64,000 bases of DNA from Escherichia coli (GTDB lineage Bacteria > Pseudomonadota > Gammaproteobacteria > Enterobacterales > Enterobacteriaceae), in the NCBI RefSeq assembly GCF_003019035.1, contig NZ_CP027447.1. The stretch is one strand, 5' to 3'. The notes beneath the pieces were generated by a model, which was given only the letters and a program-made list of their open reading frames with translations, had not been told where the DNA came from and ran no database searches. This document shows, piece after piece, positions 12,311-60,406 of the stretch (the first letter of the stretch is position 1; each line of letters opens with the position of its first letter). The position numbers and the translations under genes were made by a program.

Positions 12311-12693
12311 TTACAGGTACATTCAGTTTCTTTAGTAAATCGGAAGTAAATAAGATACGTAGCACATATCAATATAGGTTAAACGAGATTAAGTTTTAAT
12401 TATTTCGATTAGGTTTAAATTTATGTTTTTTTCCTGATGAGTGTCAATATGTGAACAGAAAATGAATTCCATGGTTAAGTCAATATTTACAAAAAATGAA
12501 AATATTGCTTTTTTGATAAGAAGAAAAAGACATTCAGTTTCATAAGGTTATTGGCAATATAACGTTCAATTCTTACTTGCATTTTATATTAGCCAGGAAC
12601 TTTGCCCTGAGGTGTTAGGAATAGTCTTAATGTGTTGTGTAATGGACTAGTAAAAAAACAAGTTTAAATGATAAGAAATGGAATATAAAACTA

Positions 12694-42196: not shown

Positions 42197-43285
42197 ATGA
42201 ATTCATGTGATTTTCGTGTTTTTCTGCAAGAGTTCGGTACAACGGTTCATTTGTCATTGCCTGGTAGCGTATCCGAGAAAGAACGACTGCTACTCAAGCT
42301 GCTGATGCAGGGAATGTCTGTAACAGAAATATCACAGTACAGAAATCGCAGTGCAAAGACCATTTCACATCAAAAGAAACAGCTCTTTGAGAAACTGGGG
42401 ATTCAGAGCGATATTACTTTCTGGCGGGATATTTTCTTTCAGTACAATCCGGAGATCATATCCGCCACGGGTAATAATAGTCACAAATATATTAATGATA
42501 ATCACTATCACCATATCGTCACGCCTGAAGCCATCAGTCTGGCGTTGGAAAACCATGAATTTAAACCGTGGATCCAACCGGTTTTCTGCGCGCAGACTGG
42601 GGTACTGACGGGCTGTGAGGTGCTTGTTCGCTGGGAACATCCGCAAACGGGAATTATCCCACCGGATCAGTTTATTCCTCTGGCGGAGTCATCTGGTCTT
42701 ATCGTCATAATGACTCGCCAGCTGATGAAACAGACTGCGGATATTCTGATGCCAGTAAAACATTTGCTGCCGGATAATTTCCATATTGGCATCAACGTCT
42801 CGGCAGGATGTTTTTTGGCCGCAGGATTTGAAAAAGAGTGTCTGAACCTGGTTAAGAAATTAGGTAACGATAAAATCAAACTGGTTCTCGAGTTAACGGA
42901 ACGTAACCCTATTCCGGTAACGCCAGAAGCCAGAGCGATATTTGACAGCCTTCATCAGCACAACATTACCTTTGCGCTGGATGACTTTGGTACGGGTTAT
43001 GCAACCTATCGTTACTTGCAGGCGTTCCCGGTCGATTTTATTAAGATCGATAAGTCATTTGTGCAAATGGCGAGCGTGGACGAAATATCCGGTCATATTG
43101 TGGACAATATTGTCGAACTGGCGCGTAAGCCTGGTCTGAGTATCGTGGCGGAAGGGGTAGAAACCCAGGAGCAGGCGGATTTAATGATCGGCAAAGGCGT
43201 TCACTTTTTGCAGGGCTATTTGTACTCTCCGCCAGTACCGGGTAATAAATTTATCTCTGAATGGGTAATGAAAGCCGGTGGTTGA
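42197..43285 (+). CDS. pdeL: c-di-GMP phosphodiesterase PdeL (YahA), LuxR HTH plus EAL domain
   Basis: N-terminal LuxR-type HTH (LLMQGMSVTEISQY) and C-terminal EAL domain; preceded by an ~870-bp AT-rich non-coding region. Confidence 0.85.
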   Translation: MNSCDFRVFLQEFGTTVHLSLPGSVSEKERLLLKLLMQGMSVTEISQYRNRSAKTISHQKKQLFEKLGIQSDITFWRDIFFQYNPEIISATGNNSHKYINDNHYHHIVTPEAISLALENHEFKPWIQPVFCAQTGVLTGCEVLVRWEHPQTGIIPPDQFIPLAESSGLIVIMTRQLMKQTADILMPVKHLLPDNFHIGINVSAGCFLAAGFEKECLNLVKKLGNDKIKLVLELTERNPIPVTPEARAIFDSLHQHNITFALDDFGTGYATYRYLQAFPVDFIKIDKSFVQMASVDEISGHIVDNIVELARKPGLSIVAEGVETQEQADLMIGKGVHFLQGYLYSPPVPGNKFISEWVMKAGG

Positions 43286-43326
43286 TGTAAACCGCTATTC
43301 ACAGCGCATCGGGAGGTTGGCAGCGA

Positions 43327-44259
43327 TTAATTCTCCCGATGCAGTAAATCCTGATAGATCCCCGTTAATATGCCATTTGGCGCAAATTGTTTTTTAATCC
43401 ACTGCGTCACCTGACCGGTGGCAGAGTGCTGGGTCGCCAGTAACATGCGTGAATCCTGGCGCGGATTATGGATTTGTCGGGTAACCAGCAGGGATTGCGC
43501 CATCGCCTCACGGACCATGTAATCCGGCAAAAAACCAATTCCTTCGCCTAAAATCTGGCACTGACATTTGGTGTTGAAATCTGGCACCAGAATCGACTCC
43601 TGCCCATGCAGCAACCAGCCCACTTTTTTATTAATCGTATGCGCGGTGTCTTCCACCATGATATTAGGATAGAGACGCAGCTGGCTTTCGGCGATGGGTT
43701 CCGGCACAAAGGCTAACGGGTGATCCGGGGCGATAGCAAAAGCCCAGCGAATCGCGCCAATCTCCGTGTAATCAATGCCGCCGCCGTCCAGCAGTGTGTC
43801 GGGCGCGCCGATAGCAATATTCGCCTGATTATTAATAATCGCATCCCAGACGCCGTTATACACTTCGGTCGTCACGGTAATCTGGCAGGTTGGAAACTGC
43901 TTTTTCAGTACCTGTAATAAGCGTGCGGTGTGTTTGGGCGTATAAAGCAGTTGGTTAATACAAATGCGCACCCGTGCTTCTATACCCTGCGAAATAGTAT
44001 CGATGCTGCGTTTGATGGCGTGAAAATCATTCAGCAGGTCGGTAGCTTTGCGGAAAAAATAACGCCCGGACTCCGTTAACTCAATGCTTCGGGTACTGCG
44101 AGTGAACAGCACCACATCCAGCCCTGTTTCCATTCGCTTGATGGTGTAGCTAATGGCGGAAGTGGTTAAACCCAACTCTTCTGCGGCTTTACTGAAACTG
44201 CCAAAACGCGCAGCGGTAGTAAATGCCAACAGATTCTCTTCGGTAAAAATTGAGTTCAT
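43327..44259 (-). CDS. yahB: LysR-family regulator YahB
   Basis: 310-aa ORF with LysR HTH (FGSFSKAAEELGLTTSAISYTIKRMETGL). Confidence 0.85.
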   Translation of the reverse strand: MNSIFTEENLLAFTTAARFGSFSKAAEELGLTTSAISYTIKRMETGLDVVLFTRSTRSIELTESGRYFFRKATDLLNDFHAIKRSIDTISQGIEARVRICINQLLYTPKHTARLLQVLKKQFPTCQITVTTEVYNGVWDAIINNQANIAIGAPDTLLDGGGIDYTEIGAIRWAFAIAPDHPLAFVPEPIAESQLRLYPNIMVEDTAHTINKKVGWLLHGQESILVPDFNTKCQCQILGEGIGFLPDYMVREAMAQSLLVTRQIHNPRQDSRMLLATQHSATGQVTQWIKKQFAPNGILTGIYQDLLHREN

Positions 44260-44350
44260 TAAACCATTCCCGCCATTATCGAATATGAATTTCTCCAGCC
44301 ATGACTGTAGAGGTATCGGTTAAAGATAGATAATCATTTTTGAATAACTT

Positions 44351-44848
44351 TTAATACCCGTCGCGTTTAGTCGTCGCTTCGCTTAATTTTTGTCCGCCAT
44401 ATTCTGAAATTATCCCCACGCAGTTACCCGCCAGAAAACCCAGTAATGTCACCGTCCAGTTCATCCCGCTGGCAAAAAATAGCGTCATGCCGAGAAAGCC
44501 TCCGGGAATAAAAGACAGTAACCAGAAACGCCCTTGCCAGACCACTACCGCTGAGAAGGGCACGGTGGTAATCACGCTTGCCCAGAAGCCGGAAAGCCCA
44601 CTTACAGAGGCCAGCCCGCCGGCAGCCAGCGCGGCGAAAAACGCCCACACCATCCCGGAATAATTAACCGCCAGGCTTCTGATAAACCCCGATTTACCGC
44701 CGCCTGCGGCATAAAAACTGCAAAAGGCGACGAAGCCAATGGTTCCTAATAATTCCCATCCCTGAGAGAGCCCGACATGTGAAGACACTAACTGCCAAAG
44801 CCCTGCACAAATACCGACGGTGACACCCGTTGCCGTGAGTCCGTTCAT
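44351..44848 (-). CDS. yahC: Inner membrane protein YahC
   Basis: 165-aa hydrophobic ORF. Confidence 0.8.
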   Translation of the reverse strand: MNGLTATGVTVGICAGLWQLVSSHVGLSQGWELLGTIGFVAFCSFYAAGGGKSGFIRSLAVNYSGMVWAFFAALAAGGLASVSGLSGFWASVITTVPFSAVVVWQGRFWLLSFIPGGFLGMTLFFASGMNWTVTLLGFLAGNCVGIISEYGGQKLSEATTKRDGY

Positions 44849-45105
44849 CTTGTTCCCCTCTGGTTAGACATGGACGAAAGCTACTCTTACATGTGCAGAC
44901 TATAGAGAAATAAAACCTGATTGAGTGAAAGGGTATCGGGTCAAAGAAACAAATATTGCACTACCGCACACTGCGAAAAGATTGTTGAACATCATTCAAC
45001 AAAAAGGCGAAATACGGCGAATTAAATTTAAGCGGGTTCTTTTATCAGATTATCGTTGCTATTCTCAATTCATCGAAAACAGCCACAAAAACCAGGGGAA
45101 TGTGA

Positions 45106-45711
45106 ATGACTATAAAAAATCTACCTGCCGACTATTTATTGGCTGCGCAACAGGGTGATATCGATAAAGTAAAAACCTGCCTTGCGCTGGGTGTCGATAT
45201 TAATACCTGCGATCGTCAGGGGAAAACGGCAATTACGCTGGCAAGTTTATATCAGCAATATGCTTGCGTTCAGGCATTAATTGACGCCGGAGCGGATATT
45301 AATAAGCAAGATCATACCTGTTTAAATCCTTTTTTAATTAGCTGCCTGACCGGCGATTTAACCCTGTTACGGATTATTTTACCGGCTAAACCCGATCTTA
45401 ATTGCGTAACCCGTTTTGGCGGTGTCGGCCTGACGCCTGCCTGCGAAAAAGGCCATTTAAGTATTGTAAAAGAGCTTTTGGCGCATACGGAGATTAACGT
45501 TAACCAGACCAACCATGTAGGCTGGACGCCGCTACTGGAAGCGATTGTGCTTAATGATGGCGGGATTAAACAGCAGGCGATTGTCCAGTTATTGCTGGAA
45601 CACGGTGCCAGTCCGCATCTGACGGATAAATATGGCAAAACGCCGCTGGAACTGGCGCGGGAACGAGGCTTTGAAGAGATTGCGCAGTTACTGATTGCCG
45701 CAGGTGCATAA
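45106..45711 (+). CDS. yahD: Ankyrin-repeat protein YahD
   Basis: 201-aa ORF with ankyrin repeats (GKTAITLAS, GWTPLLEA, GKTPLELA). Confidence 0.85.
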   Translation: MTIKNLPADYLLAAQQGDIDKVKTCLALGVDINTCDRQGKTAITLASLYQQYACVQALIDAGADINKQDHTCLNPFLISCLTGDLTLLRIILPAKPDLNCVTRFGGVGLTPACEKGHLSIVKELLAHTEINVNQTNHVGWTPLLEAIVLNDGGIKQQAIVQLLLEHGASPHLTDKYGKTPLELARERGFEEIAQLLIAAGA

Positions 45712-45750
45712 ACCGGGAGGCTTGCTATCAACACACCAGAAAGACGGTGT

Positions 45751-46614
45751 GTGTGGTCGCTAACTGCGGATGCTGATTTTCTGGCGCAGCGGGGGCAAGG
45801 ACAGGTTGAACAGGTCTTTGCCAGAGCGGTAAATATCGCACTTCCGGCCCGCCAGCAGTTGCTGACGCTGCTTTGTGAAGAGTACGACAATGCGCCAAAC
45901 AGTTGTCGGTTGGCACTCACTCACTTTAATGGTCTGTTCCGGCATGGTGATAAGGTTCAGTTTGACGATCAAGGCATTACGGTTGGTCAACATCTTCATA
46001 TAGAGATGAGTCATTGCCAGCGTTGGCTGTCCCCAACCTTGCAAATGACCGCTGTGAATTTTCACCTTATCGTCTGGCAACAGTGGCATGACATTATTCA
46101 TCAGCACCTGGGGGAAAATGAAACCCTGTTTAATTATTGCGGCGATAATCCGTTTTATCAGGCGTTAAATAAAGAATTACATATTAAACGACGGGCAGTT
46201 ATTCAGGCCGTAAACGATAAACAAAATATCGCCTCAGCAGTCGCCAGTATGATGGGCTTAGGGATTGGCCTTACGCCATCAGCCGACGATTATTTAACAG
46301 GTCTGGCGCTTATTTTATTTATTTCCGGACATCCGGCGGAAAAATACAAAGAGGAATTTTATCTCGGTCTGCAACGCGGCAGAAATAATACCACGTTATT
46401 AAGTGCCATAACGCTGGAAGCCGCATTACAACAACGCTGCCGGGAAAATATTCATCGTTTTATTCATAACATTATTTATGACATCCCTGGGAACGCAACT
46501 CAGGCAATAGAAAAAATTAAACATATTGGCTCCAGTTCCGGCTGCGACATGCTGTATGGCATGGCCGATGGTTGTGCGCTGAGCCAAACCTACGGAGGGA
46601 ATTATGTCAGTTAA
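45751..46614 (+). CDS. yahE: YahE (DUF2877)
   Basis: 287-aa ORF in conserved yahEFG order. Confidence 0.8.
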   Translation: MWSLTADADFLAQRGQGQVEQVFARAVNIALPARQQLLTLLCEEYDNAPNSCRLALTHFNGLFRHGDKVQFDDQGITVGQHLHIEMSHCQRWLSPTLQMTAVNFHLIVWQQWHDIIHQHLGENETLFNYCGDNPFYQALNKELHIKRRAVIQAVNDKQNIASAVASMMGLGIGLTPSADDYLTGLALILFISGHPAEKYKEEFYLGLQRGRNNTTLLSAITLEAALQQRCRENIHRFIHNIIYDIPGNATQAIEKIKHIGSSSGCDMLYGMADGCALSQTYGGNYVS

Positions 46615-48151
46615 AATAGTCATTAAACCGAATACCTATTTTGATTCTGTCTCGCTGATGTCTATCTCTACGCGTGCAAATAAACTCGACGGCGTCGAGC
46701 AGGCATTTGTGGCGATGGCGACCGAAATGAACAAAGGCGTACTGAAGAATTTAGGGCTGCTGACGCCGGAGCTGGAGCAGGCGAAAAACGGCGACCTGAT
46801 GATTGTCATCAACGGCAAAGCGGGCGCAGACAACGAGCAGTTGCTGGTGGAGATTGAAGAACTGTTCAACACCAAAGCGCAAAGCGGCTCGCACGAGGCG
46901 CGTTACGCCACTATTGCCAGCGCCAAAAAGCATATCCCGGAAAGTAACCTGGCAGTGATTTCGGTCAACGGTCTGTTTGCCGCTCGCGAAGCGCGTCAGG
47001 CGCTGCAAAATGATCTTAACGTGATGCTGTTTTCCGATAACGTCTCGGTTGAAGATGAACTGGCGCTCAAACAGTTGGCCCATGAAAAAGGGCTGCTGCT
47101 GATGGGGCCAGACTGCGGCACGGCGATTATCAACGGCGCGGCGCTCTGCTTTGGTAACGCCGTGCGTCGCGGCAACATCGGTATTGTTGGCGCATCCGGC
47201 ACCGGTAGCCAGGAACTGAGCGTCCGTATCCATGAATTTGGCGGCGGCGTTTCGCAACTGATTGGCACCGGTGGGCGCGACCTGAGCGAGAAAATCGGCG
47301 GCCTGATGATGTTCGACGCCATCGGGATGCTGGAAAACGATCCGCAAACTGAAATCATTGTGCTTATCTCCAAACCGCCTGCGCCTGCGGTGGCCCGCAA
47401 AGTGCTGGAACGCGCACGTGCCTGCCGCAAGCCGGTGGTGGTCTGCTTCCTCGGTCGTGGCGAAACGCCAGTGGATGAGCAAGGGCTACAGTTTGCTCGC
47501 GGCAGCAAAGAGGCGGCGCTGAAAGCGGTAATGCTCTCCGGCGTGAAACAGGAACATCTCGATCTGCATACCCTGAACCAGCCATTGATTGCTGACGTGC
47601 GCGCTCGCCTGAAGCCGCAACAGAAATACATTCGTGGCCTGTTCTGCGGAGGTACGCTGTGTGACGAAACCATGTTCGCGGTGATGGAAAAACACGGCGA
47701 TGTCTACAGCAACATCCAGCCCGATCCTGAATTCCGCCTGAAAGATATCAACCGCAGCGTCAAACATACCTTCCTCGACTTTGGCGATGACGATTTTACC
47801 AACGGCAAGCCGCATCCAATGATTGACCCCACCAACCGTATCAGCCGCTTGATCGAAGAGGCGCGCGATCCAGAAGTGGCGGTGATCGTGATGGATTTTG
47901 TGCTCGGGTTTGGATCGCATGAAGATCCGGTCGGTTCCACCATCGAGGCGATCAAAGAGGCGAAAGCGAACGCCGCTGCCGAAGGACGTGAGTTGATCAT
48001 TCTCGCCTATGTGCTGGGTACCGATCTTGATACGCCATCATTAGAACAACAAAGCCAGATGCTGCTTGATGCCGGAGTGATTCTGGCGAGCAGCAGCACC
48101 AATACCGGATTGCTGGCGCGTGAATTTATCTGCAAAGGGGAGGAAGCCTGA
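46604..48151 (+). CDS. yahF: FdrA-like CoA-binding protein YahF
   Basis: 515-aa ORF resembling succinyl-CoA synthetase alpha-type proteins. Confidence 0.85.
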   Translation: MSVKIVIKPNTYFDSVSLMSISTRANKLDGVEQAFVAMATEMNKGVLKNLGLLTPELEQAKNGDLMIVINGKAGADNEQLLVEIEELFNTKAQSGSHEARYATIASAKKHIPESNLAVISVNGLFAAREARQALQNDLNVMLFSDNVSVEDELALKQLAHEKGLLLMGPDCGTAIINGAALCFGNAVRRGNIGIVGASGTGSQELSVRIHEFGGGVSQLIGTGGRDLSEKIGGLMMFDAIGMLENDPQTEIIVLISKPPAPAVARKVLERARACRKPVVVCFLGRGETPVDEQGLQFARGSKEAALKAVMLSGVKQEHLDLHTLNQPLIADVRARLKPQQKYIRGLFCGGTLCDETMFAVMEKHGDVYSNIQPDPEFRLKDINRSVKHTFLDFGDDDFTNGKPHPMIDPTNRISRLIEEARDPEVAVIVMDFVLGFGSHEDPVGSTIEAIKEAKANAAAEGRELIILAYVLGTDLDTPSLEQQSQMLLDAGVILASSSTNTGLLAREFICKGEEA

Positions 48152-49569
48152 TGAGCCAGTCACTGTTTAGCCAACCGTTGAACGTTATTAACGTCGGCAT
48201 CGCCATGTTTAGCGATGATCTGAAAAAGCAGCATGTAGAAGTGACCCAACTCGACTGGACGCCGCCGGGGCAGGGCAATATGCAGGTGGTGCAGGCGCTG
48301 GACAACATTGCCGATTCGCCGCTGGCAGACAAAATCGCCGCCGCTAACCAGCAGGCGCTGGAACGCATTATCCAGTCGCATCCGGTGCTGATTGGTTTTG
48401 ATCAGGCGATTAATGTGGTGCCGGGCATGACGGCGAAAACCATTCTTCACGCCGGGCCGCCGGTCACCTGGGAAAAAATGTGCGGCGCGATGAAAGGCGC
48501 GGTCACCGGGGCGCTGGTGTTCGAAGGACTGGCGAAAGATCTCGACGAGGCGGCTGAACTGGCGGCTTCCGGGGAGATCACCTTCTCGCCGTGCCACGAG
48601 CATGACTGCGTGGGATCGATGGCGGGCGTCACCTCGGCCTCGATGTTTATGCACATCGTGAAAAACACAACCTACGGCAACATCGCTTACACCAACATGA
48701 GCGAGCAGATGGCGAAGATTTTGCGTATGGGCGCCAACGATCAGAGCGTGATTGACCGCCTCAACTGGATGCGTGATGTGCAGGGGCCAATGCTGCGCGA
48801 CGCGATGAAAATTATCGGCGAAATCGATCTGCGCTTAATGCTGGCGCAGGCGCTGCACATGGGCGATGAGTGCCATAACCGCAATAACGCCGGGACGACG
48901 CTGCTGATTCAGGCGCTGACACCGGGGATTATTCAGGCAGGTTATTCCGTCGAACAACAGCGCGAAGTGTTTGAGTTTGTCGCCAGCAGCGACTACTTCT
49001 CCGGCCCGACGTGGATGGCGATGTGTAAAGCGGCGATGGATGCGGCGCACGGCATCGAATACAGCACCGTGGTGACCACCATGGCGCGTAACGGCGTCGA
49101 GTTCGGCCTGCGGGTCAGCGGCCTGCCGGGGCAATGGTTTACCGGCCCGGCGCAGCAGGTGATCGGCCCGATGTTTGCCGGTTATAAGCCGGAAGATTCG
49201 GGGCTGGATATCGGCGACAGCGCCATCACAGAAACCTACGGTATTGGTGGATTTGCCATGGCGACCGCGCCTGCAATCGTCGCGCTGGTAGGCGGTACGG
49301 TGGAAGAGGCTATCGATTTCTCCCGCCAGATGCGTGAAATCACTCTCGGTGAAAACCCCAACGTCACCATTCCGCTGCTCGGTTTTATGGGCGTGCCGTC
49401 GGCAATCGACATCACCCGCGTGGGCAGCAGCGGCATTCTGCCGGTGATCAACACCGCCATCGCCCATAAAGATGCGGGCGTCGGCATGATTGGTGCGGGC
49501 ATTGTGCATCCCCCCTTCGCCTGCTTCGAGAAAGCCATTCTTGGCTGGTGCGAACGTTACGGCGTCTGA
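48151..49569 (+). CDS. yahG: YahG (DUF1116)
   Basis: 472-aa ORF overlapping the yahF stop. Confidence 0.85.
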   Translation: MSQSLFSQPLNVINVGIAMFSDDLKKQHVEVTQLDWTPPGQGNMQVVQALDNIADSPLADKIAAANQQALERIIQSHPVLIGFDQAINVVPGMTAKTILHAGPPVTWEKMCGAMKGAVTGALVFEGLAKDLDEAAELAASGEITFSPCHEHDCVGSMAGVTSASMFMHIVKNTTYGNIAYTNMSEQMAKILRMGANDQSVIDRLNWMRDVQGPMLRDAMKIIGEIDLRLMLAQALHMGDECHNRNNAGTTLLIQALTPGIIQAGYSVEQQREVFEFVASSDYFSGPTWMAMCKAAMDAAHGIEYSTVVTTMARNGVEFGLRVSGLPGQWFTGPAQQVIGPMFAGYKPEDSGLDIGDSAITETYGIGGFAMATAPAIVALVGGTVEEAIDFSRQMREITLGENPNVTIPLLGFMGVPSAIDITRVGSSGILPVINTAIAHKDAGVGMIGAGIVHPPFACFEKAILGWCERYGV

Positions 49570-49592
49570 CCTGCAAAGTGCGCGTTGTCTCT

Positions 49593-49766
49593 GCCGGATG
49601 CGGCGTGAACGCCTTATCCGGCCTACGGATGGCGCAAGAATCTGTAGGCCTGATAAGCGTAGCGCATCAGGCATTTGTCACCATTGCCGGTTGCGGCGTG
49701 AACGCCTTATCCGGCCTACGAGTGGCGCAAGAATTTGTAGGCCTGATAAGCGTAGCGCATCAGGCA
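49593..49766. repeat. Tandem REP/BIME elements between yahG and yahI
   Basis: Two near-identical ~80-bp units (49593-49672, 49687-49766), each an inverted pair of REP-like sequences (GCCGGATGCGGCGTGAACGCCTTATCCGGCCTAC ... GTAGGCCTGATAAGCGTAGCGCATCAGGC). Confidence 0.8.
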
Positions 49767-49815
49767 ATTTGGCATTGGTCATAACCCCATCACCCTCTGT
49801 AGCGGACATAACAAC

Positions 49816-50766
49816 ATGAAAGAGCTTGTGGTCGTTGCCATTGGTGGCAACAGCATTATCAAAGATAACGCCAGCCAGTCGATTGAGCATCAGGCGGAGG
49901 CGGTGAAAGCCGTCGCCGATACGGTGCTGGAAATGCTGGCTTCCGATTACGACATTGTGCTGACCCACGGCAACGGGCCGCAGGTCGGGCTGGATTTACG
50001 CCGTGCGGAGATTGCCCACGAGCGCGAAGGGCTGCCCTTAACGCCGCTGGCGAACTGTGTGGCGGATACGCAAGGCGGCATTGGCTATCTGATCCAGCAG
50101 GCGCTGAATAACCGGCTGGCGCGTCACGGCGAGAAAAAAGCCGTCACCGTGGTGACTCAGGTGGAAGTGGATAAAAACGATCCGGGGTTTGCCCATCCCA
50201 CCAAGCCCATCGGCGCATTCTTTAGTGAAAGCCAGCGTGACGAACTACAAAAGGCAAACCCTGACTGGCGTTTTGTTGAAGATGCCGGACGTGGCTATCG
50301 CCGCGTGGTCGCCTCGCCGGAACCGAAACGTATTGTCGAAGCACCTGCCATTAAGGCGCTGATCCAACAAGGTTTTGTGGTGATTGGCGCGGGCGGCGGT
50401 GGAATTCCGGTAGTGCGTACTGAAGCGGGGGATTACCAAAGCGTGGACGCGGTTATCGACAAAGATCTCTCTACCGCGCTATTGGCCCGTGAAATTCACG
50501 CCGACATTCTGGTGATCACCACTGGCGTCGAAAAAGTGTGTATTCACTTTGGCAAACCGCAGCAGCAGGTGCTGGATCGGGTGGATATTGCCACCATGAC
50601 CCGCTATATGCAGGAAGGGCATTTCCCACCCGGCAGCATGTTGCCAAAAATCATCGCCAGCCTGACGTTCCTGGAGCAGGGCGGTAAAGAAGTGATTATC
50701 ACCACGCCGGAATGCCTGCCTGCGGCGCTGCGCGGTGAAACGGGCACCCATATTATTAAAACGTAA
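49816..50766 (+). CDS. yahI: Carbamate kinase-like protein YahI
   Basis: 316-aa ORF with carbamate kinase-like N-terminus (VVVAIGGNSI). Confidence 0.85.
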   Translation: MKELVVVAIGGNSIIKDNASQSIEHQAEAVKAVADTVLEMLASDYDIVLTHGNGPQVGLDLRRAEIAHEREGLPLTPLANCVADTQGGIGYLIQQALNNRLARHGEKKAVTVVTQVEVDKNDPGFAHPTKPIGAFFSESQRDELQKANPDWRFVEDAGRGYRRVVASPEPKRIVEAPAIKALIQQGFVVIGAGGGGIPVVRTEAGDYQSVDAVIDKDLSTALLAREIHADILVITTGVEKVCIHFGKPQQQVLDRVDIATMTRYMQEGHFPPGSMLPKIIASLTFLEQGGKEVIITTPECLPAALRGETGTHIIKT

Positions 50767-50775
50767 GGACGTAAG

Positions 50776-52158
50776 ATGAAAGAAAACAATAGCCGCCGTG
50801 AATTTCTGAGCCAGAGCGGTAAGATGGTCACCGCCGCCGCGCTGTTTGGTACGTCTGTGCCGCTCGCCCATGCGGCAGTCTCTGGCACAACCCATTGCGA
50901 CGCGAATAACACCATGAAAATCACTGACCCGCATTACTATCTCGAAAACGTGCTGCTGGAAACCGGTTTTGACTACGAAAATGGCGTGGCGGTGCAGACC
51001 CGCACGGCGCGCCAGACTGTGGAAATTCAGAACGGCAAAATTGTTGCACTGCGCGAGAACAATCAGCATCCGGACGCCACGCTGCCGCACTATGACGCTG
51101 GCGGTAAGCTGATGCTGCCCACCACCCGCGACATGCATATTCATCTCGACAAAACCTTCTACGGCGGGCCGTGGCGCTCGCTCAATCGTCCGGCAGGCAC
51201 CACCATCCAGGACATGATTAAGCTTGAGCAGAAAATGCTGCCGGAACTGCAACCGTACACGCAGGAACGGGCGGAAAAACTGATCGATTTATTGCAGTCG
51301 AAAGGCACCACCATTGCCCGCAGCCACTGCAATATCGAACCGGTTTCCGGCCTGAAAAATCTGCAAAATTTGCAGGCGGTGCTGGCGCGACGTCAGGCGG
51401 GCTTCGAGTGTGAAATCGTCGCCTTCCCGCAGCACGGTTTGCTGCTGTCGAAATCGGAACCCTTAATGCGTGAAGCAATGCAGGCGGGCGCGCATTACGT
51501 CGGCGGTCTGGACCCGACCAGTGTTGATGGCGCGATGGAAAAATCCCTCGACACCATGTTCCAGATTGCCCTTGACTATGACAAAGGCGTCGATATTCAC
51601 CTGCACGAAACCACTCCGGCAGGCGTGGCAGCTATCAATTATATGGTTGAAACGGTAGAGAAAACGCCGCAACTGAAGGGCAAGCTGACCATCAGCCACG
51701 CCTTCGCGCTGGCAACGCTCAACGAACAACAGGTAGATGAACTGGCGCACCGGATGGCGGCGCAGCAAATTTCTATCGCCTCGACGGTGCCGATTGGCAC
51801 GCTGCATATGCCGCTCAAACAGTTGCACGACAAAGGCGTAAAAGTCATGACCGGCACCGACAGCGTTATCGACCACTGGTCTCCCTACGGCCTGGGCGAC
51901 ATGCTGGAAAAAGCCAATCTGTACGCGCAGCTCTATATTCGTCCTAACGAACAGAATTTGTCCCGTTCGCTGTTTTTAGCCACTGGCGATGTATTGCCGC
52001 TCAACGAAAAAGGCGAGCGCGTGTGGCCCAAAGCGCAGGATGACGCCAGCTTTGTGCTGGTGGACGCCTCCTGTTCCGCCGAGGCGGTGGCGCGTATCTC
52101 GCCGAGAACCGCAACGTTCCATAAAGGGCAACTGGTGTGGGGGAGTGTGGCAGGTTGA
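50776..52158 (+). CDS. yahJ: Amidohydrolase/deaminase YahJ
   Basis: 460-aa ORF with Tat-like N-terminus (RREFLSQSG) and metal-dependent amidohydrolase fold motifs. Confidence 0.85.
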   Translation: MKENNSRREFLSQSGKMVTAAALFGTSVPLAHAAVSGTTHCDANNTMKITDPHYYLENVLLETGFDYENGVAVQTRTARQTVEIQNGKIVALRENNQHPDATLPHYDAGGKLMLPTTRDMHIHLDKTFYGGPWRSLNRPAGTTIQDMIKLEQKMLPELQPYTQERAEKLIDLLQSKGTTIARSHCNIEPVSGLKNLQNLQAVLARRQAGFECEIVAFPQHGLLLSKSEPLMREAMQAGAHYVGGLDPTSVDGAMEKSLDTMFQIALDYDKGVDIHLHETTPAGVAAINYMVETVEKTPQLKGKLTISHAFALATLNEQQVDELAHRMAAQQISIASTVPIGTLHMPLKQLHDKGVKVMTGTDSVIDHWSPYGLGDMLEKANLYAQLYIRPNEQNLSRSLFLATGDVLPLNEKGERVWPKAQDDASFVLVDASCSAEAVARISPRTATFHKGQLVWGSVAG

Positions 52159-52455
52159 TGCGCATTTGAAACGCCTGCAACGGTGAATAGTAAGAGATTT
52201 AAGCCCCAGGGAGTGGGGCGGCAATGGTTTGCTAATGAATCATCCTGAACTTTATAATCTCCATGCATAATTTCCAGGGGGGTATTTGAGAGAAATACAC
52301 AAAAGTGAGTTTTAACAAAGATATTTATCAAGCCATAAATGTGACCTGCTTCGGATAAAAAGATTAAACATAGAAAAACCAATGATACTCTTGCTGATGG
52401 TTACCAACAGTAATTAAGATGTGATTTGTTTTTCCGTAATCGCGAAAATATTCTC

Positions 52456-52866
52456 ATGACCATAAAAGAAAAAATCTTACAAAAATATCCCCATGCTTCC
52501 TTTTGTACTTTTGGCGATTCAGCAGCGTTGGCCGATCACCTCGCAACGTTGATTGCGACTGGTGTTAAAACTGCTTCCTGTGGTTCGCTGGCGGGATGTA
52601 TTGAAGACAACATATTTCCGATGATTGGTGAGTATAAGATTGTAGAAAATAGCCGTGGTGAGCCTGTCTGTGTTATCAGAGTGATTGGCCTGCATTTACT
52701 GCGCTTTTCTGATGTCACCGCGGAGCTTGCCCGTAAGGAAGGTGAAGGTGACCTCAGTCTTGAATATTGGCGTAATGAACACCGTCGTTTTTTCCAGGTA
52801 GAAGGAAGTTATTCACCAGAAATGGACGTTATCTTTGAAGAATATGCCCTTATTGACGTTGTGTAG
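52456..52866 (+). CDS. ASCH (PUA-like) domain protein
   Basis: Small ORF; ASCH call is a weak motif-level guess (GVKTAS); start set at MTIKEKIL. Confidence 0.45.
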   Translation: MTIKEKILQKYPHASFCTFGDSAALADHLATLIATGVKTASCGSLAGCIEDNIFPMIGEYKIVENSRGEPVCVIRVIGLHLLRFSDVTAELARKEGEGDLSLEYWRNEHRRFFQVEGSYSPEMDVIFEEYALIDVV

Positions 52867-53116
52867 ATAACTATTTATCTACACGAAATAAGCTCACAAA
52901 CATAAAATATCGCTAATTTTGCTTATTTTGCTATTTTTTACGTGATGAATGTCACACTTATTGTTGCTGCCCGTTTTGTCCATATTTATAACCATATTTT
53001 TAATAGCTGCCTGAAATAGGGCTGTTTATTCTGCATAAAAATATTAGAAAATTCTTATTCTCTCCAGCGCGCTAATTTGGGCGAACACTTCCTGACTACC
53101 CTGCAATGAGGCTGAA

Positions 53117-54103
53117 ATGATGAATAAACGTTTTGTTATCAATATGGTGTCTTCGCTGTTATTAGGCGCTGCGCTAATTTCTGCGCCGCTCCAGGCAGCG
53201 GAAAAAGTCGTGGTGAATATCTCTAAAGTCGATGGTATGCCGTGGTTTAATCGCATGGGCGAAGGTGTGGTTGAGGCGGGTAAAGCCTTTGGTGTTAATG
53301 CGTCACAGGTGGGGCCTTCAAGTACTGATGCTCCGCAACAGGTTAAAATTATTGAGGATTTAATCGCCCGTAAGGTTAATGCAATTACTATCGTGCCAAA
53401 CGATGCCAACGTGCTGGAACCGGTATTCAAAAAAGCGCGAGATGCCGGAATTGTGGTTCTGACCAACGAATCTCCCGGTCAGCCAAGTGCTAACTGGGAT
53501 ATCGAAATCATTGATAACGAAAAATTTGCCGCTGAATATGTTGAGCATATGGCGAAACGCATGGGGGGCAAGGGCGGCTATGTGATTTACGTGGGGAGTT
53601 TGACCGTGCCGCAGCATAACTTATGGGCTGACTTGCTGGTGAAATACCAGAAAGAGCATTACCCGGATATGCATGAAGTTACCCGCCGCATGCCGGTTGC
53701 CGAGAGTGTGGATGACTCACGTCGTACCACACTGGACCTGATGAAAACCTATCCTGACTTGAAAGCGGTTGTCTCCTTTGGTTCAAACGGTCCGATTGGC
53801 GCGGGACGTGCAGTGAAAGAGAAACGGGCGAAAAATAAAGTCGCAGTCTATGGCATGATGATCCCTTCACAGGCGGCATCACTGATTAAAAGTGGTGATA
53901 TCACCGAAGGGATTACTTACGATCCGGCCTCTGCAGGTTACGCACTCGCGGCCGTCGCCAGCACGTTGCTGAAGGGTGAAGAGATCAAACCTGGATTAGA
54001 AATGGAGAATCTCGGTAAGGCCGACGTAGATATGGATAAGCGAATTATCCGTTTCCATAAGGTATTACTGGTCAACAAAGACAATATCGACTCACTTTAT
54101 TAA
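53117..54103 (+). CDS. Periplasmic monosaccharide-binding protein (LsrB/RbsB-like, CUT2 ABC)
   Basis: 328-aa ORF with signal peptide; C-terminus LLVNKDNIDSLY resembles the LsrB C-terminus as I recall it. Confidence 0.75.
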   Translation: MMNKRFVINMVSSLLLGAALISAPLQAAEKVVVNISKVDGMPWFNRMGEGVVEAGKAFGVNASQVGPSSTDAPQQVKIIEDLIARKVNAITIVPNDANVLEPVFKKARDAGIVVLTNESPGQPSANWDIEIIDNEKFAAEYVEHMAKRMGGKGGYVIYVGSLTVPQHNLWADLLVKYQKEHYPDMHEVTRRMPVAESVDDSRRTTLDLMKTYPDLKAVVSFGSNGPIGAGRAVKEKRAKNKVAVYGMMIPSQAASLIKSGDITEGITYDPASAGYALAAVASTLLKGEEIKPGLEMENLGKADVDMDKRIIRFHKVLLVNKDNIDSLY

Positions 54104-54151
54104 TCCATTTCTTCGGGGCGAAAGCCCCGATTCTTATTGCCAGGGGATGCT

Positions 54152-55636
54152 ATGGAAACCTTCCTTTCCCTTCGTCATATCAACAAAACGTTTCATGCCA
54201 CGCGAGCGCTGCGCGATGTTTCTCTCGACTTTATGTCGGGTGAGGTGCACTGCCTTGCCGGGCAAAACGGCTGTGGTAAATCGACGTTGATTAAAATTAT
54301 GTCCGGTGTTTATCGCCCGGATGAGGGGGCGGAAATTACGCTTGGTGGGAAAAACTGGTCAAAGCTGACACCCGCCGCTTCGGTGGCGCAGGGGATTCAG
54401 GTGATTTATCAGGACCTCTCTTTATTTCCTAACCTGAGTGTCTGGGAGAATATCGCCGTGAATCACTATCACCACGGTCTGTTTGTTAACCGACGTCGTC
54501 TGCGTGAGGTGGCGCAGGCGGCAATGACCAGTATTAACGTCACATTGCCATTGGATACGCTCGTTTCTGAGCTTTCAATTGCCCGCTGTCAGCTGGTGGC
54601 AATTTGCCGTGCACTGGCGCAGGACGCACGGTTGATCGTGATGGATGAACCAACCGCTTCGCTGACCCATCAGGAAGTGCAAGGGTTATTACAGGTGGTG
54701 CATCAATTGCGGGAACGCGGGATCTGCGTGGTCTTCGTCAGTCATCGTCTGGAAGAAGTGATGGAAGTTTCCGACCGTATTTCAGTGCTGAAAGATGGTG
54801 AGCTGGTCGGGACTTTTCCGGCTGCAGAGATGACCACAAAACAACTCGGTTTCCTGATGACCGGCCAGGAGTTTGAATATCAGGTGCGAGAGTTGTGGCA
54901 GGGAAAATCCAGCACCCCAGTGCTGGAGGTGCGTAATTTAAGTCGTCATGGGGAATATCAAAATATTAACTTGCGGGTGGAAGCGGGCGAAGTGGTGTCG
55001 ATTGTTGGCCTGCTTGGTGCGGGGCGCACGGAATTATGTCTGAGTCTGTTTGGTATGACCCGACCGGATGCTGGAGAGATCCTCATCAACGGTCAGCCGG
55101 TTACACTGCATAGTAACCAGGACGCCATCCGCCACGGTATTGGTTATGTTTCGGAAGATCGCATGTCGCGCGGTTTGGTGATGGCGCAATCTATTGAAGA
55201 CAACATCATTAGCACTGTTTTTCACAAGGTAAAAGATCGCTTCGGCTTTCTGAGTGAAGCTAAAGTGCGTGACCTGGTGGACAGGCTAATCAAGGCATTG
55301 ACCATCAAAGTCTCTGACCCACATCTCCCGGTGAATACGCTTTCTGGTGGTAACGCGCAGCGAGTATCGATCGCCAAATGGCTGGCGATTGGGCCACGAC
55401 TGTTGATTCTCGATAGCCCGACAGTCGGTGTTGATATCGCCAACAAAGCAGGAATATACGGCATTATCAGCGATCTGGCGGCTCATGGCATTGCGGTATT
55501 GATGATCTGCGATGAAATTGAAGAAGCGTGGTATCAAAGCCACCGTATTTTGGTAATGCAAAAAGGTCAGATCACCCATAGCTTCCTGCCTGACAGCAGT
55601 TCTCAGGCCAGGATTGCGGAGGTGGTAAATGGCTGA
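54152..55636 (+). CDS. Sugar ABC transporter ATP-binding protein, two fused nucleotide-binding domains
   Basis: Walker A GQNGCGKST in the first half, signature LSGGNAQRVSIA in the second. Confidence 0.85.
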   Translation: METFLSLRHINKTFHATRALRDVSLDFMSGEVHCLAGQNGCGKSTLIKIMSGVYRPDEGAEITLGGKNWSKLTPAASVAQGIQVIYQDLSLFPNLSVWENIAVNHYHHGLFVNRRRLREVAQAAMTSINVTLPLDTLVSELSIARCQLVAICRALAQDARLIVMDEPTASLTHQEVQGLLQVVHQLRERGICVVFVSHRLEEVMEVSDRISVLKDGELVGTFPAAEMTTKQLGFLMTGQEFEYQVRELWQGKSSTPVLEVRNLSRHGEYQNINLRVEAGEVVSIVGLLGAGRTELCLSLFGMTRPDAGEILINGQPVTLHSNQDAIRHGIGYVSEDRMSRGLVMAQSIEDNIISTVFHKVKDRFGFLSEAKVRDLVDRLIKALTIKVSDPHLPVNTLSGGNAQRVSIAKWLAIGPRLLILDSPTVGVDIANKAGIYGIISDLAAHGIAVLMICDEIEEAWYQSHRILVMQKGQITHSFLPDSSSQARIAEVVNG

Positions 55637-56600
55637 ACTGAAAAAACGCCATGAATTCTGGCTGGCATTACTGATTGTGGTGCTGTTTGTTGGCCTTGCC
55701 TGGCGCAGCGACGAGTTTCTGACATTCGGTAATTTGTACGATCTCGCCAATAACTATGCCATGTTGACTATTCTCGCCTGTGGTTTGTTTGTGGTGTTGA
55801 TTTCCGGTGGAATTGATATTTCGTTTCCGGCAATGACCATCATTGCGCAATACGGCATGGTGCTGTTGCTACAAAAAATTGGTGGTAACTTTGCTGTCGC
55901 GTTTGCCCTGGCGGGCGGCATCGGCATTTTACTTGGCTTAATTAACGCCTTACTGGTTAATCGCCTACGGGTGCCTTCTATCATCATCACTATCTCGACG
56001 CTGAATATTTTTTATGGCCTGCTGTTATGGTTGAGTAAAGGTGTGTGGCTGTACGACTTTCCGCCGTGGTTTGAGCAGGGGGTAATGTTGTTCAAGTACA
56101 CCGATGCTGATGGCTATGACTATGGCCTTGGTCTGCCGCTGATCGCCATGATTACGGTGGTGCTGCTGACAGCGTTTATCATGAATTTCACCAGTGTAGG
56201 GCGCAAAATTTATGCCCTTGGCGGGAACCGTGAATCCGCCAGTCGCATCGGCTTTAGCGTGCTGAAACTGCAACTTTTCGTCTACGGCTATATGGGATTG
56301 ATGTCTGGTGCTGCGGGTGTAGTGCAGTCGTGGACGGTGATGACTGTCGCCCCCGATTCTCTTCTGGGTTATGAGCTGACAGTACTGGCTGCGGTGGTGC
56401 TTGGCGGCACTAGTTTGCTCGGCGGGCGCGGCACGTTAACCGGTACTTTGCTCGGCGTGGTGTTGTTGGCAGTGATGCAAAACGGGCTAAATTTATTGGG
56501 AGTCTCGTCTTACTGGCAAACATTGATCACCGGCATCATCATCGTTGCCAGCATTAGCGCCACGGCGTGGAGTCAGCATCAGAACCGGAGTCTGCTATGA
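55629..56600 (+). CDS. Sugar ABC transporter permease
   Basis: 323-aa multi-pass membrane ORF, RbsC/LsrC-like. Confidence 0.8.
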   Translation: MAELKKRHEFWLALLIVVLFVGLAWRSDEFLTFGNLYDLANNYAMLTILACGLFVVLISGGIDISFPAMTIIAQYGMVLLLQKIGGNFAVAFALAGGIGILLGLINALLVNRLRVPSIIITISTLNIFYGLLLWLSKGVWLYDFPPWFEQGVMLFKYTDADGYDYGLGLPLIAMITVVLLTAFIMNFTSVGRKIYALGGNRESASRIGFSVLKLQLFVYGYMGLMSGAAGVVQSWTVMTVAPDSLLGYELTVLAAVVLGGTSLLGGRGTLTGTLLGVVLLAVMQNGLNLLGVSSYWQTLITGIIIVASISATAWSQHQNRSLL

Positions 56601-57553
56601 AAAAATCGTGGCGTAATAACGTTGAGTTTTACTTGATCGGCCTGCTGGTGCTAACTGTTGCCGCCTTCAGCATTACTATGCCGGAGATTTTCTGGTCGAT
56701 AAGTAATTTCCAGTCCGTCGCTTCGCAAATGCCCGTGCTGGGCATTCTGGCGTTGGCTATGGCGGTGACCATGCTTTGCGGTGGCATTAACTTGTCAATT
56801 ATTGCCACTGCTAACGCCTGTTCACTGGTGATGGCGTGGGTGGCGACTCAGTATCCACCGGGTATTGCTACGGTTGTCGCTACGTTACTGGCGGGCGCTG
56901 GCGCGGCGGTGATAATCGGTTTATGTAACGGCGTATTGATTGCTGGTATTCGAGTGTCGCCAATTCTTGCAACGCTTGGGATGATGACGTTGCTCAAAGG
57001 GATAAATATTCTGGTGACAGGCGGTAGCGCCATTGCCAATTATCCCTCATGGGTGCTGTGGTTGAATCATGCGCAATGGTTCGGTATTCCGCTACCGATG
57101 TGGTTGTTTGCCGCAGTGGCGCTGGGGCTGTGGATATTGCTGGAGAAAACGCCGCTCGGTAAATCCATTTATCTGATTGGTTCTAACGAACGAGCAACAC
57201 TTTACTCCGGTATTAACACTCGTCGGGTGCTGATTTGGGTTTATGTCATTTCCGCCTTGCTTTGTGCGGTAGCGGCATTTTTGATGATGTCGAAACTCAA
57301 CTCGGCTAAGGCCTCTTATGGCGAATCGTACTTGCTGGTGTCAATCCTCGCGGCAGTACTCGGCGGGGTTAATCCGGACGGCGGCAGCGGGCGGATAATT
57401 GGTATGGTGCTGGCGCTGTTTCTTCTGCAAATTATTGAAAGCGGCTTCAATATTCTCGGTATAAGCCCCTACCTGACGATGGCCTTATGGGGAACGTTGC
57501 TGCTCTGTTTCATTCAGGCTCGCGGCATGTTGGGGCTGGATCGGGTGGTTTAA
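56597..57553 (+). CDS. Sugar ABC transporter permease
   Basis: Second permease; start set at MKKSWRNN. Confidence 0.8.
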   Translation: MKKSWRNNVEFYLIGLLVLTVAAFSITMPEIFWSISNFQSVASQMPVLGILALAMAVTMLCGGINLSIIATANACSLVMAWVATQYPPGIATVVATLLAGAGAAVIIGLCNGVLIAGIRVSPILATLGMMTLLKGINILVTGGSAIANYPSWVLWLNHAQWFGIPLPMWLFAAVALGLWILLEKTPLGKSIYLIGSNERATLYSGINTRRVLIWVYVISALLCAVAAFLMMSKLNSAKASYGESYLLVSILAAVLGGVNPDGGSGRIIGMVLALFLLQIIESGFNILGISPYLTMALWGTLLLCFIQARGMLGLDRVV

Positions 57554-57639
57554 ATATTGGCTATATTCAATGGACGCGTTTTGCCGCGATGACATATCAG
57601 GCATCGCCAAATACACATAGCTAATCAGGAGTAAACACA

Positions 57640-58689
57640 ATGAAGATCAAAGCTGTTGGTGCATATTCCGCTAAACAACCGCTGGAACCGATGGATATCA
57701 CCCGGCGTGAACCGGGACCGCATGATGTCAAAATCGAAATCGCTTACTGTGGCGTCTGCCATTCCGATATCCACCAGGTCCGTTCCGAGTGGGCGGGGAC
57801 GGTTTACCCCTGTGTGCCGGGTCATGAAATTGTGGGGCGTGTGGTAGCCGTTGGTGATCAGGTAGAAAAACATGCGCCGGGCGATCTGGTCGGTGTCGGC
57901 TGCATTGTCGACAGTTGTAAACATTGCGAAGAGTGTGAAGACGGGCTGGAAAACTACTGTGATCACATGACCGGCACCTATAACTCGCCGACGCCGGACG
58001 AACCGGGCCATACTCTGGGCGGCTACTCACAACAGATCGTCGTTCATGAGCGATATGTTCTGCGTATTCGTCACCCGCAAGAGCAGCTGGCGGCGGTGGC
58101 ACCTTTGTTGTGTGCAGGGATCACCACGTATTCGCCGCTACGTCACTGGCAGGCCGGGCCGGGAAAAAAAGTGGGCGTGGTCGGCATCGGCGGTCTGGGA
58201 CATATGGGGATTAAGCTGGCCCACGCGATGGGGGCGCATGTGGTGGCATTTACCACTTCTGAGGCAAAACGCGAAGCGGCAAAAGCCCTGGGGGCCGATG
58301 AAGTTGTTAACTCACGCAATGCCGATGAGATGGCGGCTCATCTCAAGAGTTTCGATTTCATTTTGAATACAGTAGCTGCGCCACATAATCTCGACGATTT
58401 TACCACCTTGCTGAAGCGTGATGGCACCATGACGCTGGTTGGTGCGCCTGCGACACCGCATAAATCACCGGAAGTTTTCAACCTGATCATGAAACGCCGT
58501 GCGATAGCCGGCTCTATGATTGGCGGCATTCCAGAAACACAGGAGATGCTCGATTTTTGCGCCGAACATGACATCGTGGCTGATATAGAGATGATTCGGG
58601 CCGATCAAATTAATGAAGCCTATGAGCGAATGCTGCGAGGTGATGTGAAATATCGTTTTGTTATCGATAATCGCACACTAACAGACTGA
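57640..58689 (+). CDS. yahK: Zn-dependent aldehyde reductase YahK
   Basis: 349-aa ORF with GHE.VG zinc motif and GIGGLGHMG NADP-binding motif. Confidence 0.9.
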   Translation: MKIKAVGAYSAKQPLEPMDITRREPGPHDVKIEIAYCGVCHSDIHQVRSEWAGTVYPCVPGHEIVGRVVAVGDQVEKHAPGDLVGVGCIVDSCKHCEECEDGLENYCDHMTGTYNSPTPDEPGHTLGGYSQQIVVHERYVLRIRHPQEQLAAVAPLLCAGITTYSPLRHWQAGPGKKVGVVGIGGLGHMGIKLAHAMGAHVVAFTTSEAKREAAKALGADEVVNSRNADEMAAHLKSFDFILNTVAAPHNLDDFTTLLKRDGTMTLVGAPATPHKSPEVFNLIMKRRAIAGSMIGGIPETQEMLDFCAEHDIVADIEMIRADQINEAYERMLRGDVKYRFVIDNRTLTD

Positions 58690-59747: not shown

Positions 59748-60160
59748 TTCAGAAAGGGTTCCACCTGCGAGTTGTTATTCCACCAGAGAGTGAATCGCAA
59801 AGCAGGTGATCATTTCATCTGTATATCCGTATGCCAAATGGCATTCCACCGCCTTTTTCGCCGATATTTTGTTGTGATCGGCGACGCTTCGCTTAAAAAA
59901 GCATCAGCAGTGGTTTCGCAGCTATACGGTGTATAAAAAAATGATCTCATGCAGATGTTTTGTGAATGTGTGGGTTGACATTCATATGAAAAAAATCATA
60001 ATTCCATCATGTTTGTGTGGGGGCTTTTCTGTATCTTACGCATCGCACTCAAGCCTGACAGAAAATATGCTGTAAGGCTCATATCAAAAACCGCCATTAG
60101 CTCATCAGGAAGAGCAGACGACAACCAGGATTGTTGTATGGTACGGGGTTCGAGGCCTCG

Positions 60161-60406
60161 ATGGCGGTCCAACTTTTCATAACTCTTCTGAATCAGATCC
60201 CCTTATTATCATCCCTGCAAAGTGAAACATTGCCATTGTTTGGCTATTCAGGACGGGTCAGAGCAATGAAAAAAGCCCACACAGGGGAGAGTGGGCTGAA
60301 ATGGGAAGCTAAAGACTCAAGTAAACTTATCGGAAATAAGGACCACGCATTACGGGGGCTATCATCGCCGATGGTCGGGATCCGGCAAATCAGGTTGATT
60401 ACGTAG
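60161..60406 (+). CDS. yahM: Small protein YahM
   Basis: ORF 60131..60406; start set at the internal Met to give 81 aa. Confidence 0.5.
   Translation: MAVQLFITLLNQIPLLSSLQSETLPLFGYSGRVRAMKKAHTGESGLKWEAKDSSKLIGNKDHALRGLSSPMVGIRQIRLIT

Follow-up and report, generated by a model that had tools for sequence, protein, structure and literature searches.

The Aau D-ribulose/L-arabinose importer between yahJ and yahK of Escherichia coli: a known transporter at a site where K-12 appears to have suffered deletions

Between yahJ and yahK, the 64,000-nt stretch of Escherichia coli DNA analysed here (contig NZ_CP027447.1, assembly GCF_003019035.1; hereafter the window) carries an ASCH-domain gene and a complete four-gene ATP-binding cassette (ABC) importer of the CUT2 family. 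We consider it very likely that this transporter is the already known Aau (accessory L-arabinose uptake) system, AauABCD, of enterohaemorrhagic E. coli (EHEC) O157:H7. This confidence is a joint one, given to the identity of the transporter together with its predicted control by AraC and CRP, the independence of the ASCH gene and the origin of the K-12 arrangement by deletions.

The interval between the two flanking genes (52159-57639) measures 5481 bp in the window versus 376 bp in K-12 MG1655, and it contains five open reading frames (ORFs), all on the + strand. The genes are listed here with their flanks (PGAP, NCBI Prokaryotic Genome Annotation Pipeline; NBD, nucleotide-binding domain):

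50776-52158: yahJ, left flank of the interval
52456-52866, + strand: ASCH-domain gene (YhfF/COG4405-like), 136 aa; Pfam ASCH PF04266, E=4e-21, 76 bits against a cutoff of 21.2
53117-54103, + strand: aauA, periplasmic D-ribulose/L-arabinose binding protein, 328 aa counted from 53117 (PGAP start 53120); Peripla_BP_4, E=4.5e-63
54152-55636, + strand: aauB, fused double-NBD ATPase, 494 aa; two ABC_tran domains
55629-56600, + strand: aauC, permease, 323 aa; BPD_transp_2, E=4.6e-34
56597-57553, + strand: aauD, permease, 318 aa; BPD_transp_2, E=9.7e-32; its last 72 nt (57482-57553) are kept in K-12
57640-58689: yahK, right flank of the interval

E. coli SCU-301 matches the interval at 100% identity, and there PGAP annotates the same five intact genes. 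The permease genes start within the preceding gene (overlaps of 8 nt for aauC and 4 nt for aauD), and yahK comes directly after aauD, so that the binding protein, ATPase and two permeases adjoin yahK with neither a kinase nor a regulator in cis. According to Pfam the transporter has the composition of CUT2 (TC 3.A.1.2), that is, a Peripla_BP_4 substrate-binding protein, an ATPase with both NBDs in one polypeptide and permeases of the BPD_transp_2 family. The NCBIfam similarities of the components are to AraG, XylG, RbsA, AraH and RbsC; for aauB the best are AraG, YtfR and XylG, every one under its cutoff. An initial annotation, made from the sequence alone, had described this gene content (ASCH gene and complete CUT2 importer, with double-NBD ATPase and two permeases), the absence of the locus from K-12 and the lack of both regulator and catabolic enzyme in cis, all of which the ORFs, the Pfam domains and the 376 bp left in MG1655 bear out. 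Its coordinates were likewise right except that the interval is 5.48 kb rather than "about 5.3 kb" and that the ASCH gene starts at 52456, not 52426.

The identity of the transporter follows from the binding protein. A search of PDB sequences returned AauA of EHEC (chain 9I1M_A, deposited as "Sugar-binding protein") with E=4.9e-213 and 325 of 327 residues identical to the window protein. The two substitutions (D199V and E297Q in 9I1M numbering, the window having D199 and E297 where 9I1M has V and Q) both lie away from the contact residues. In the published crystal structure alpha-D-ribulose is held by Lys37, Trp43, Glu118, His167, Glu196 and Ser223 (PMC12307932), and all six (K37, W43, E118, H167, E196, S223) are present in the window AauA and in 12 orthologues. 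The EHEC system (Z0415-Z0419, "OI-17"; Cottam et al., Nat Commun 2024, PMC11127945, and 2025, PMC12307932) occupies the same chromosomal site by yahK with the same gene order, and it too is an orphan operon, with regulator and kinase absent in cis. A difference concerns the ATPase, which is one intact 494-aa ORF in the window and spans two locus tags (Z0416-7) in EDL933.

The accessible excerpts of these two papers, to which all our statements about them are limited, give the properties of the EHEC system. AauA binds D-ribulose with a dissociation constant (Kd) of 1.98 μM and L-arabinose with one of 598 μM, and its thermal shift with D-ribose or L-arabinose is only 2 °C; use of D-ribulose by EHEC needs the presence of L-arabinose and runs via AraB, which is sufficient for it (PMC12307932). 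An aau deletion mutant of EHEC has a ~100-fold competitive disadvantage in mice (PMC11127945, PMC12307932). The initial annotation had regarded substrate and control as open; the 99%-identical AauA of PDB 9I1M, the published Kd and the published dependence on AraC and L-arabinose supply the answer. By its own terms it would be refuted if the binding protein were an exact orthologue from a characterised transporter, which at 325/327 identity to AauA it is.

If the window operon works as described for EHEC, L-arabinose-bound AraC, encoded elsewhere, would switch on the promoter upstream of aauA; AauA would take up D-ribulose in the periplasm (Kd about 2 μM) and bind L-arabinose weakly (about 0.6 mM); AauBCD would import the sugar; and the L-ribulokinase AraB would phosphorylate D-ribulose, which would then enter the pentose phosphate pathway. 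Since AraC and AraB are encoded elsewhere, no regulator or enzyme would be needed within the aau locus.

Control by AraC has experimental grounds in EHEC, where a ~300-bp fragment upstream of Z0415 responded to L-arabinose as sole inducer and was silent in an araC deletion strain (PMC11127945). In the excerpts of both papers (PMC11127945, PMC12307932) the AraC site itself is not mapped. In the window, the following elements were recognised upstream of aauA:

52942-52956, + strand: CRP-like site GTGA-N6-TCACA, GTGAtgaatgTCACA, read from the sequence
52968-53005, + strand: predicted AraC site, composed of an araI1-like half-site TGCCCGTTTTGTCCATA (52968-52984), a 4-nt spacer ttta and an araI2-like half-site TAACCATATTTTTAATA (52989-53005)
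53027-53032, + strand: candidate -10 hexamer TATTCT, 21 nt past the I2-like half-site, proposed from the sequence only

We compared this region with K-12 P_BAD, whose fetched sequence reads TCACA...TAGCATTTTTATCCATA-agat-TAGCGGATCCTACCTGA, followed by the -10 element TACTGT 20 nt after I2. The order is the same in the two promoters: a CRP half-site TCACA, an I1 ending in TCCATA, a 4-nt spacer, an I2 starting with TA(G/A)C and a -10 hexamer ~20 nt further on; the I1/I2 junction TCCATAagatTAGC is common to both. In the aauA promoter, however, the distance from CRP to I1 is 2 nt shorter, and both the A-box of I1 and the B-box of I2 match less well. We infer that AraC may act via the araI1/I2-like pair at 52968-53005 together with the CRP site at 52942-52956, arranged as in P_BAD, and the predicted site fits the published AraC dependence of the aauA promoter.

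Across 13 genera, the sequences preceding aauA orthologues cannot be aligned except for two blocks that they share, GTGA-N6-TCACA and TCCAT(A/G)-N4-TAGC. The AraC core, TCCATA-N4-TARC, occurs a single time in the 64-kb window; in other taxa, 48/59 Aau-type operons have it in the preceding 350 nt, versus 0/20 operons of the related Rbl type described below and ~0.5 in shuffled sequences. It is present in 36 of the 46 Aau-type loci that had no part in defining the motif, and in 22 orthologous promoters a match to GTGA-N6-TC[AT]C precedes it by 37-38 nt. Aau-type cassettes of many Enterobacterales, of Pasteurellaceae and of one Aeromonas thus appear to share the P_BAD-like arrangement in their upstream regions. 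A consensus promoter/terminator scan of 52100-53200 gave one promoter-like match, at 52229-52258 upstream of the ASCH gene, and no terminator, fewer hits than in shuffled sequences, so that it was uninformative. In Yersinia (six loci: L024, L025, L027, L028, L033 and L037) the AraC core occurs twice upstream of aauA, 113 nt apart at about -330 and -217, which may reflect duplication of part of the promoter or an additional AraC site.

The difference from K-12 was described as an "insert" in the initial annotation. The alignment of K-12 with the window (blastn) defines two stretches that are missing from K-12:

52220-52816: the first 361 nt of the ASCH gene and the region before it, replaced in K-12 by 22 unrelated nt
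52961-57469 (approximate ends): predicted AraC sites and promoter, aauABC and most of aauD

Three pieces remain. The first (12400-12569 of the K-12 locus L002) is 100% identical to window 52050-52219; the second (L002 12592-12657, window 52817-52882) comprises the last 50 nt of the ASCH ORF, encoding EMDIIFEEYALIDVV and the stop codon, and a hairpin; the third (L002 12727-12950, window 57482-57705) comprises the last 72 nt of aauD, encoding ALWGTLLLCFIQARGMLGLDRVV and the stop codon, and continues into yahK. Everything to the right of the CRP half-site is taken away by the larger deletion. The C-terminus ALWGTLLLCFIQARGMLGLDRVV with its stop is conserved in AauD of Klebsiella, Franconibacter and Mangrovibacter; therefore the K-12 fragment is a real gene remnant and K-12 a double-deletion derivative. 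An imperfect inverted repeat (52105-52129/57482-57506; 25 nt, 76% complementary), the right arm of which begins at the right junction of the K-12 deletion, is probably due to chance.

We then counted the alleles in 5426 complete E. coli genomes, taking at least 80% of the 5.48-kb interval as the full locus and one contiguous match as the scar. The full locus is present in 2211 genomes and the K-12-type scar in 2803, including versions only 95-97% identical to K-12. The presence/absence difference that the initial annotation proposed to examine by pan-genome comparison at the yahJ-yahK junction is thus real, while its direction is the reverse of an insertion, K-12, with its truncated ends of ASCH and aauD, being the derived state. 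E. coli HH45 is the only one of the 5426 genomes with an intact ASCH gene and aau deleted; there the ASCH gene is followed by a 78-nt aauD fragment flagged by PGAP as a partial pseudogene. The HH45 junction (L094 2712-2991) lies ~10 nt from that of K-12, keeps 10 more promoter nt and has a G8 filler, GGGGGGGGCACC; it could have arisen by a separate deletion or represent the K-12 deletion at an earlier stage of decay. Escherichia sp. E2593, the flanks of which share about 90-95% identity with the window, has an ASCH gene that is intact (88% aa identity), then an aauD remnant and then yahK; its deletion junction is within about 6 nt of the K-12 junction.

The complementary arrangement was found in L031 (labelled E. 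coli SCPM-O-B-8794, a separate species in GTDB), about 90% identical to the window. Here (L031 7269-8000) yahB-yahJ (window ~43385-52767) and the 5' part of ASCH are deleted, and pdeL directly abuts the 3'-terminal ~100 nt of ASCH; aauABCD, intact like yahK, adjoin the latter. The divergence of aau in this lineage is about equal to that of the adjacent yahK-yahL. We conclude that aau probably held the yahJ-yahK site before E. coli diversified and was lost either repeatedly or via spread of a scar allele. Early Escherichia would already have had the locus in place, and its loss from K-12 and about half of E. coli would have come about by two deletions, of about 4.5 kb (aau) and about 0.6 kb (most of the ASCH gene). 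With moderate confidence, we go further and regard "OI-17" as an old resident of the yahJ-yahK site of Escherichia, a long-lived presence/absence polymorphism rather than a gain by EHEC, and AraC-gated scavenging of D-ribulose as ancient and widespread. As a separate observation, the yahB-yahJ block (window 43000-52219) is about 96% identical to K-12 and yahK-prpR about 97.8%, which suggests that the aau site is flanked by divergent haplotypes.

The alternative that survives best, although we consider it unlikely, is that the 5 kb are a horizontally acquired island put into an ancestral K-12-like yahJ-yahK junction. This was the direction implied by the initial annotation, and the EHEC papers also term the locus horizontally acquired; their accessible excerpts contain no description of the AraC site, of the adjacent ASCH gene or of the gene remnants in K-12. 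The locus is indeed missing from K-12, as it is from the majority of strains in phylogroups A and B2 (PMC11127945), the ASCH gene has a low GC content (about 0.41), and in other genera the aau cassette lies at different chromosomal sites, pointing to movement over long time scales. However, the supposedly empty site holds in-frame 3' fragments of ASCH and of aauD, the latter with the C-terminus conserved in Klebsiella; the window locus has no integrase or transposase ORFs, no direct repeats at its boundaries and no adjacent tRNA; the GC content of the aau genes (0.46-0.53) resembles that of the flanks; and L031 has aau at the same site, diverged like its neighbours. For the comparison with K-12, the island explanation is already contradicted.

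Several points nevertheless weigh against our own reading. Most Escherichia species representatives in the genome scan are without aauA, which also favours the island, and the locus may have entered the genus early instead of being present at its very root. K-12 and HH45 have different junctions, consistent with either one deletion that decayed or several. For this strain, the function of Aau is extrapolated from an orthologue of 99% identity. Both the AraC and the CRP site are predictions, with weak matches to the I1 A-box (TGCC) and the I2 B-box (TTAATA) and the short CRP-I1 spacing, and the related loci share common ancestry, so that the 48/59 operons with the core do not count as independent events.

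The four-gene cassette was also found in other genera, with AauA identities of 92% in Klebsiella, 90-92% in Franconibacter and Mangrovibacter, about 75% in Yersinia, 70-77% in Pasteurellaceae and 65-68% in Vibrio; it is further present in Aeromonas, Symbiopectobacterium, Atlantibacter, Leclercia and Providencia. At about 78 fetched loci outside Escherichia (Enterobacterales, Pasteurellaceae, Vibrio, Aeromonas), ASCH, yahJ or yahK was never a neighbour of aau, and in Klebsiella and Yersinia no regulator or kinase is adjacent to the cassette. In Klebsiella pneumoniae ATCC 13883, orthologous aauBCD come after the gene of the 92%-identical AauA orthologue and the same layout of CRP, I1 and I2 before it, but the site differs from that of the window: the cassette lies between a tRNA-synt_1b-family (Pfam) gene and a flavodoxin-like gene, and neither ASCH nor yah genes adjoin it. 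The Klebsiella AauA is also the protein of a structural-genomics entry from K. pneumoniae, PDB 3D02, labelled "putative LacI-type transcriptional regulator", a name that gives no function; it matches AauA over residues 26-327 with E=4e-188, nearly the strength of 9I1M. One 4.7-kb contig labelled "MAG: Bacteroidales bacterium" (SFEK01000152.1, L003) encodes proteins 99-100% identical to E. coli aauABCD, and it almost certainly stems from E. coli and was mis-binned into a Bacteroidales metagenome-assembled genome.

A second group of cassettes, about 60% identical, occurs in Citrobacter amalonaticus, Pluralibacter, Cedecea, Serratia and Pantoea, with an FGGY kinase and a SIS-domain gene downstream (L063, for example, at ~60% identity). 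These are of the type of Rbl of Citrobacter rodentium (ROD_24811-61), in which RblABCD is accompanied by the D-ribulokinase RblK and an isomerase, and which has D-ribulose as ligand and responds to D-ribulose, not to L-arabinose (PMC12307932). Rbl and Aau are homologous CUT2 transporters, about 60% identical in all four components, and the six binding-pocket residues are shared, as seen in the orthologues of C. amalonaticus and Serratia. Membership of the window locus in the Rbl type was considered and rejected: neither an FGGY D-ribulokinase nor an isomerase gene is downstream, yahK following aauD directly. The upstream regions of the Rbl type also lack the AraC core, unlike those of the Aau type.

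Concerning the ASCH gene, the mechanical ORF begins with TTG at 52426, whereas the ATG at 52456 is backed by PGAP (in SCU-301) and by the homologues, almost all of 136-137 aa. Its end is marked by one further feature:

52860-52868 and 52875-52883, + strand: perfect 9-bp inverted repeat GTGTAGATA/TATCTACAC, overlapping the ASCH stop TAG (52864-52866), with no T-run, kept in the K-12 scar

This repeat (52860-52883) is a possible hairpin at the end of the transcript, although the consensus terminator scan of 52100-53200 did not report it. A 253-bp gap, holding the hairpin and the predicted AraC-dependent promoter, separates ASCH from aauA, and the ASCH gene survives in genomes that have lost aau (E2593, HH45), while L031, which retains aau, has only a truncated copy. 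Because of this separation and of this independent presence or truncation, we treat the ASCH gene as a unit in itself, with its own upstream region and end hairpin, and not as part of the transporter. Relatives at 50-65% identity are widespread in Enterobacterales, often labelled YhfF; homologues in Yersinia (including Yersinia canariae) and in Pseudenterobacter lie in unrelated gene contexts. A functional link between ASCH and the transporter was therefore rejected, given also that aau cassettes elsewhere have no ASCH neighbour.

The closest solved structures to the ASCH protein, 1T62 and 3S9X, are structural-genomics entries without assigned function, and the ASCH-enzyme literature consulted (the YqfB papers and a 2026 preprint on N4-acetylcytidine erasers) mentions neither these nor YhfF or COG4405. 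The N4-acetylcytidine amidohydrolase YqfB of E. coli belongs to the same fold family, and K38, S41 and E95 of the window protein align with its triad K21/T24/E74; a T24S variant of YqfB is reported to be active. The identity of the two proteins is, however, only 21%, which makes the alignment uncertain, their lengths differ (103 aa for YqfB and 136 aa here), and the oxyanion residue Arg26 of YqfB, which is essential, is replaced by Gly43. An N4-acylcytidine amidohydrolase of the YqfB type is thus not supported; the protein may be a small hydrolase, which is plausible on sequence grounds.

It might also be supposed that ASCH, the transporter and yahD-J belong to a single pathway, with YahJ, the ASCH protein and the carbamate-kinase enzymes acting on a substrate brought in by the importer. 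All these genes are contiguous on one strand and the aau cassette is without a catabolic gene, and the initial annotation had similarly looked to yahF/G/I/J for the catabolic side. We consider this very unlikely. According to Pfam, YahE/F/G belong to the AllH/AllF/AllG families (window 45751-50766, with YahI), YahI is a carbamate kinase and YahJ an amidohydrolase, which points to catabolism of nitrogen compounds rather than of pentoses; the cluster resembles a paralogous copy of the allFGH genes of the allantoin branch, with a carbamate kinase added. Moreover, aauA has its own AraC-dependent promoter in the gap after ASCH (PMC11127945), aau occurs without yahB-J (L031) and yah with ASCH occurs without aau (E2593, HH45), the cassettes of other genera are never accompanied by yah or ASCH, and AraB, the published partner, is enough for D-ribulose use in EHEC (PMC12307932). 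The nitrogen-type families and the independent occurrence of aau and yah therefore give no support to processing of the imported sugar by the yah genes.

Most improbable is an autoinducer-2 (Lsr-type) or rhamnose/ribose importer, which the PGAP name "autoinducer 2 ABC transporter substrate-binding protein" and the best NCBIfam similarities, RhaS (137 bits) and LsrB (111 bits), would suggest, since both models fail their cutoffs (136.9 against 342 bits for RhaS, TIGR02637; 111 against 384 bits for LsrB, NF011937) and the 99%-identical protein was crystallised with D-ribulose, which it binds with the low Kd cited above (PMC12307932).

Two further observations concern the yah region. The yahG-yahI intergenic sequence (window 49591-49774) contains ~90-nt repeat units, of which K-12 has more copies, with an ORF annotated as "yahH" within them. 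ARAGORN called a tRNA-Ser(GGA) at 60091-60171 on the + strand; judged by the position of yahL and yahM, the equivalent place in K-12 is the protein gene xtpA, just before and overlapping yahM, and the call may be a false positive or a tRNA-like element.

The importance of Aau derives from the published ~100-fold advantage that it confers on EHEC in the mouse gut, and the present analysis adds no new system. What appears to be additional to the published work, as far as its accessible excerpts go, is the evidence from the deletion scar, the prediction of a conserved AraC/CRP site and the recognition of a separate ASCH neighbour. The PGAP name referring to autoinducer 2 is misleading and unsupported by the NCBIfam scores. 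A defined, predicted AraC/CRP site is now open to mutation, and its conservation predicts arabinose-gated import of D-ribulose for the orthologues of Klebsiella, Yersinia and Pasteurellaceae. An ancestral locus with repeated losses is a better description than an acquired pathogenicity island. If its old residency is true, arabinose-gated D-ribulose scavenging would be an ancient and widespread trait and not an EHEC-specific "hijack".

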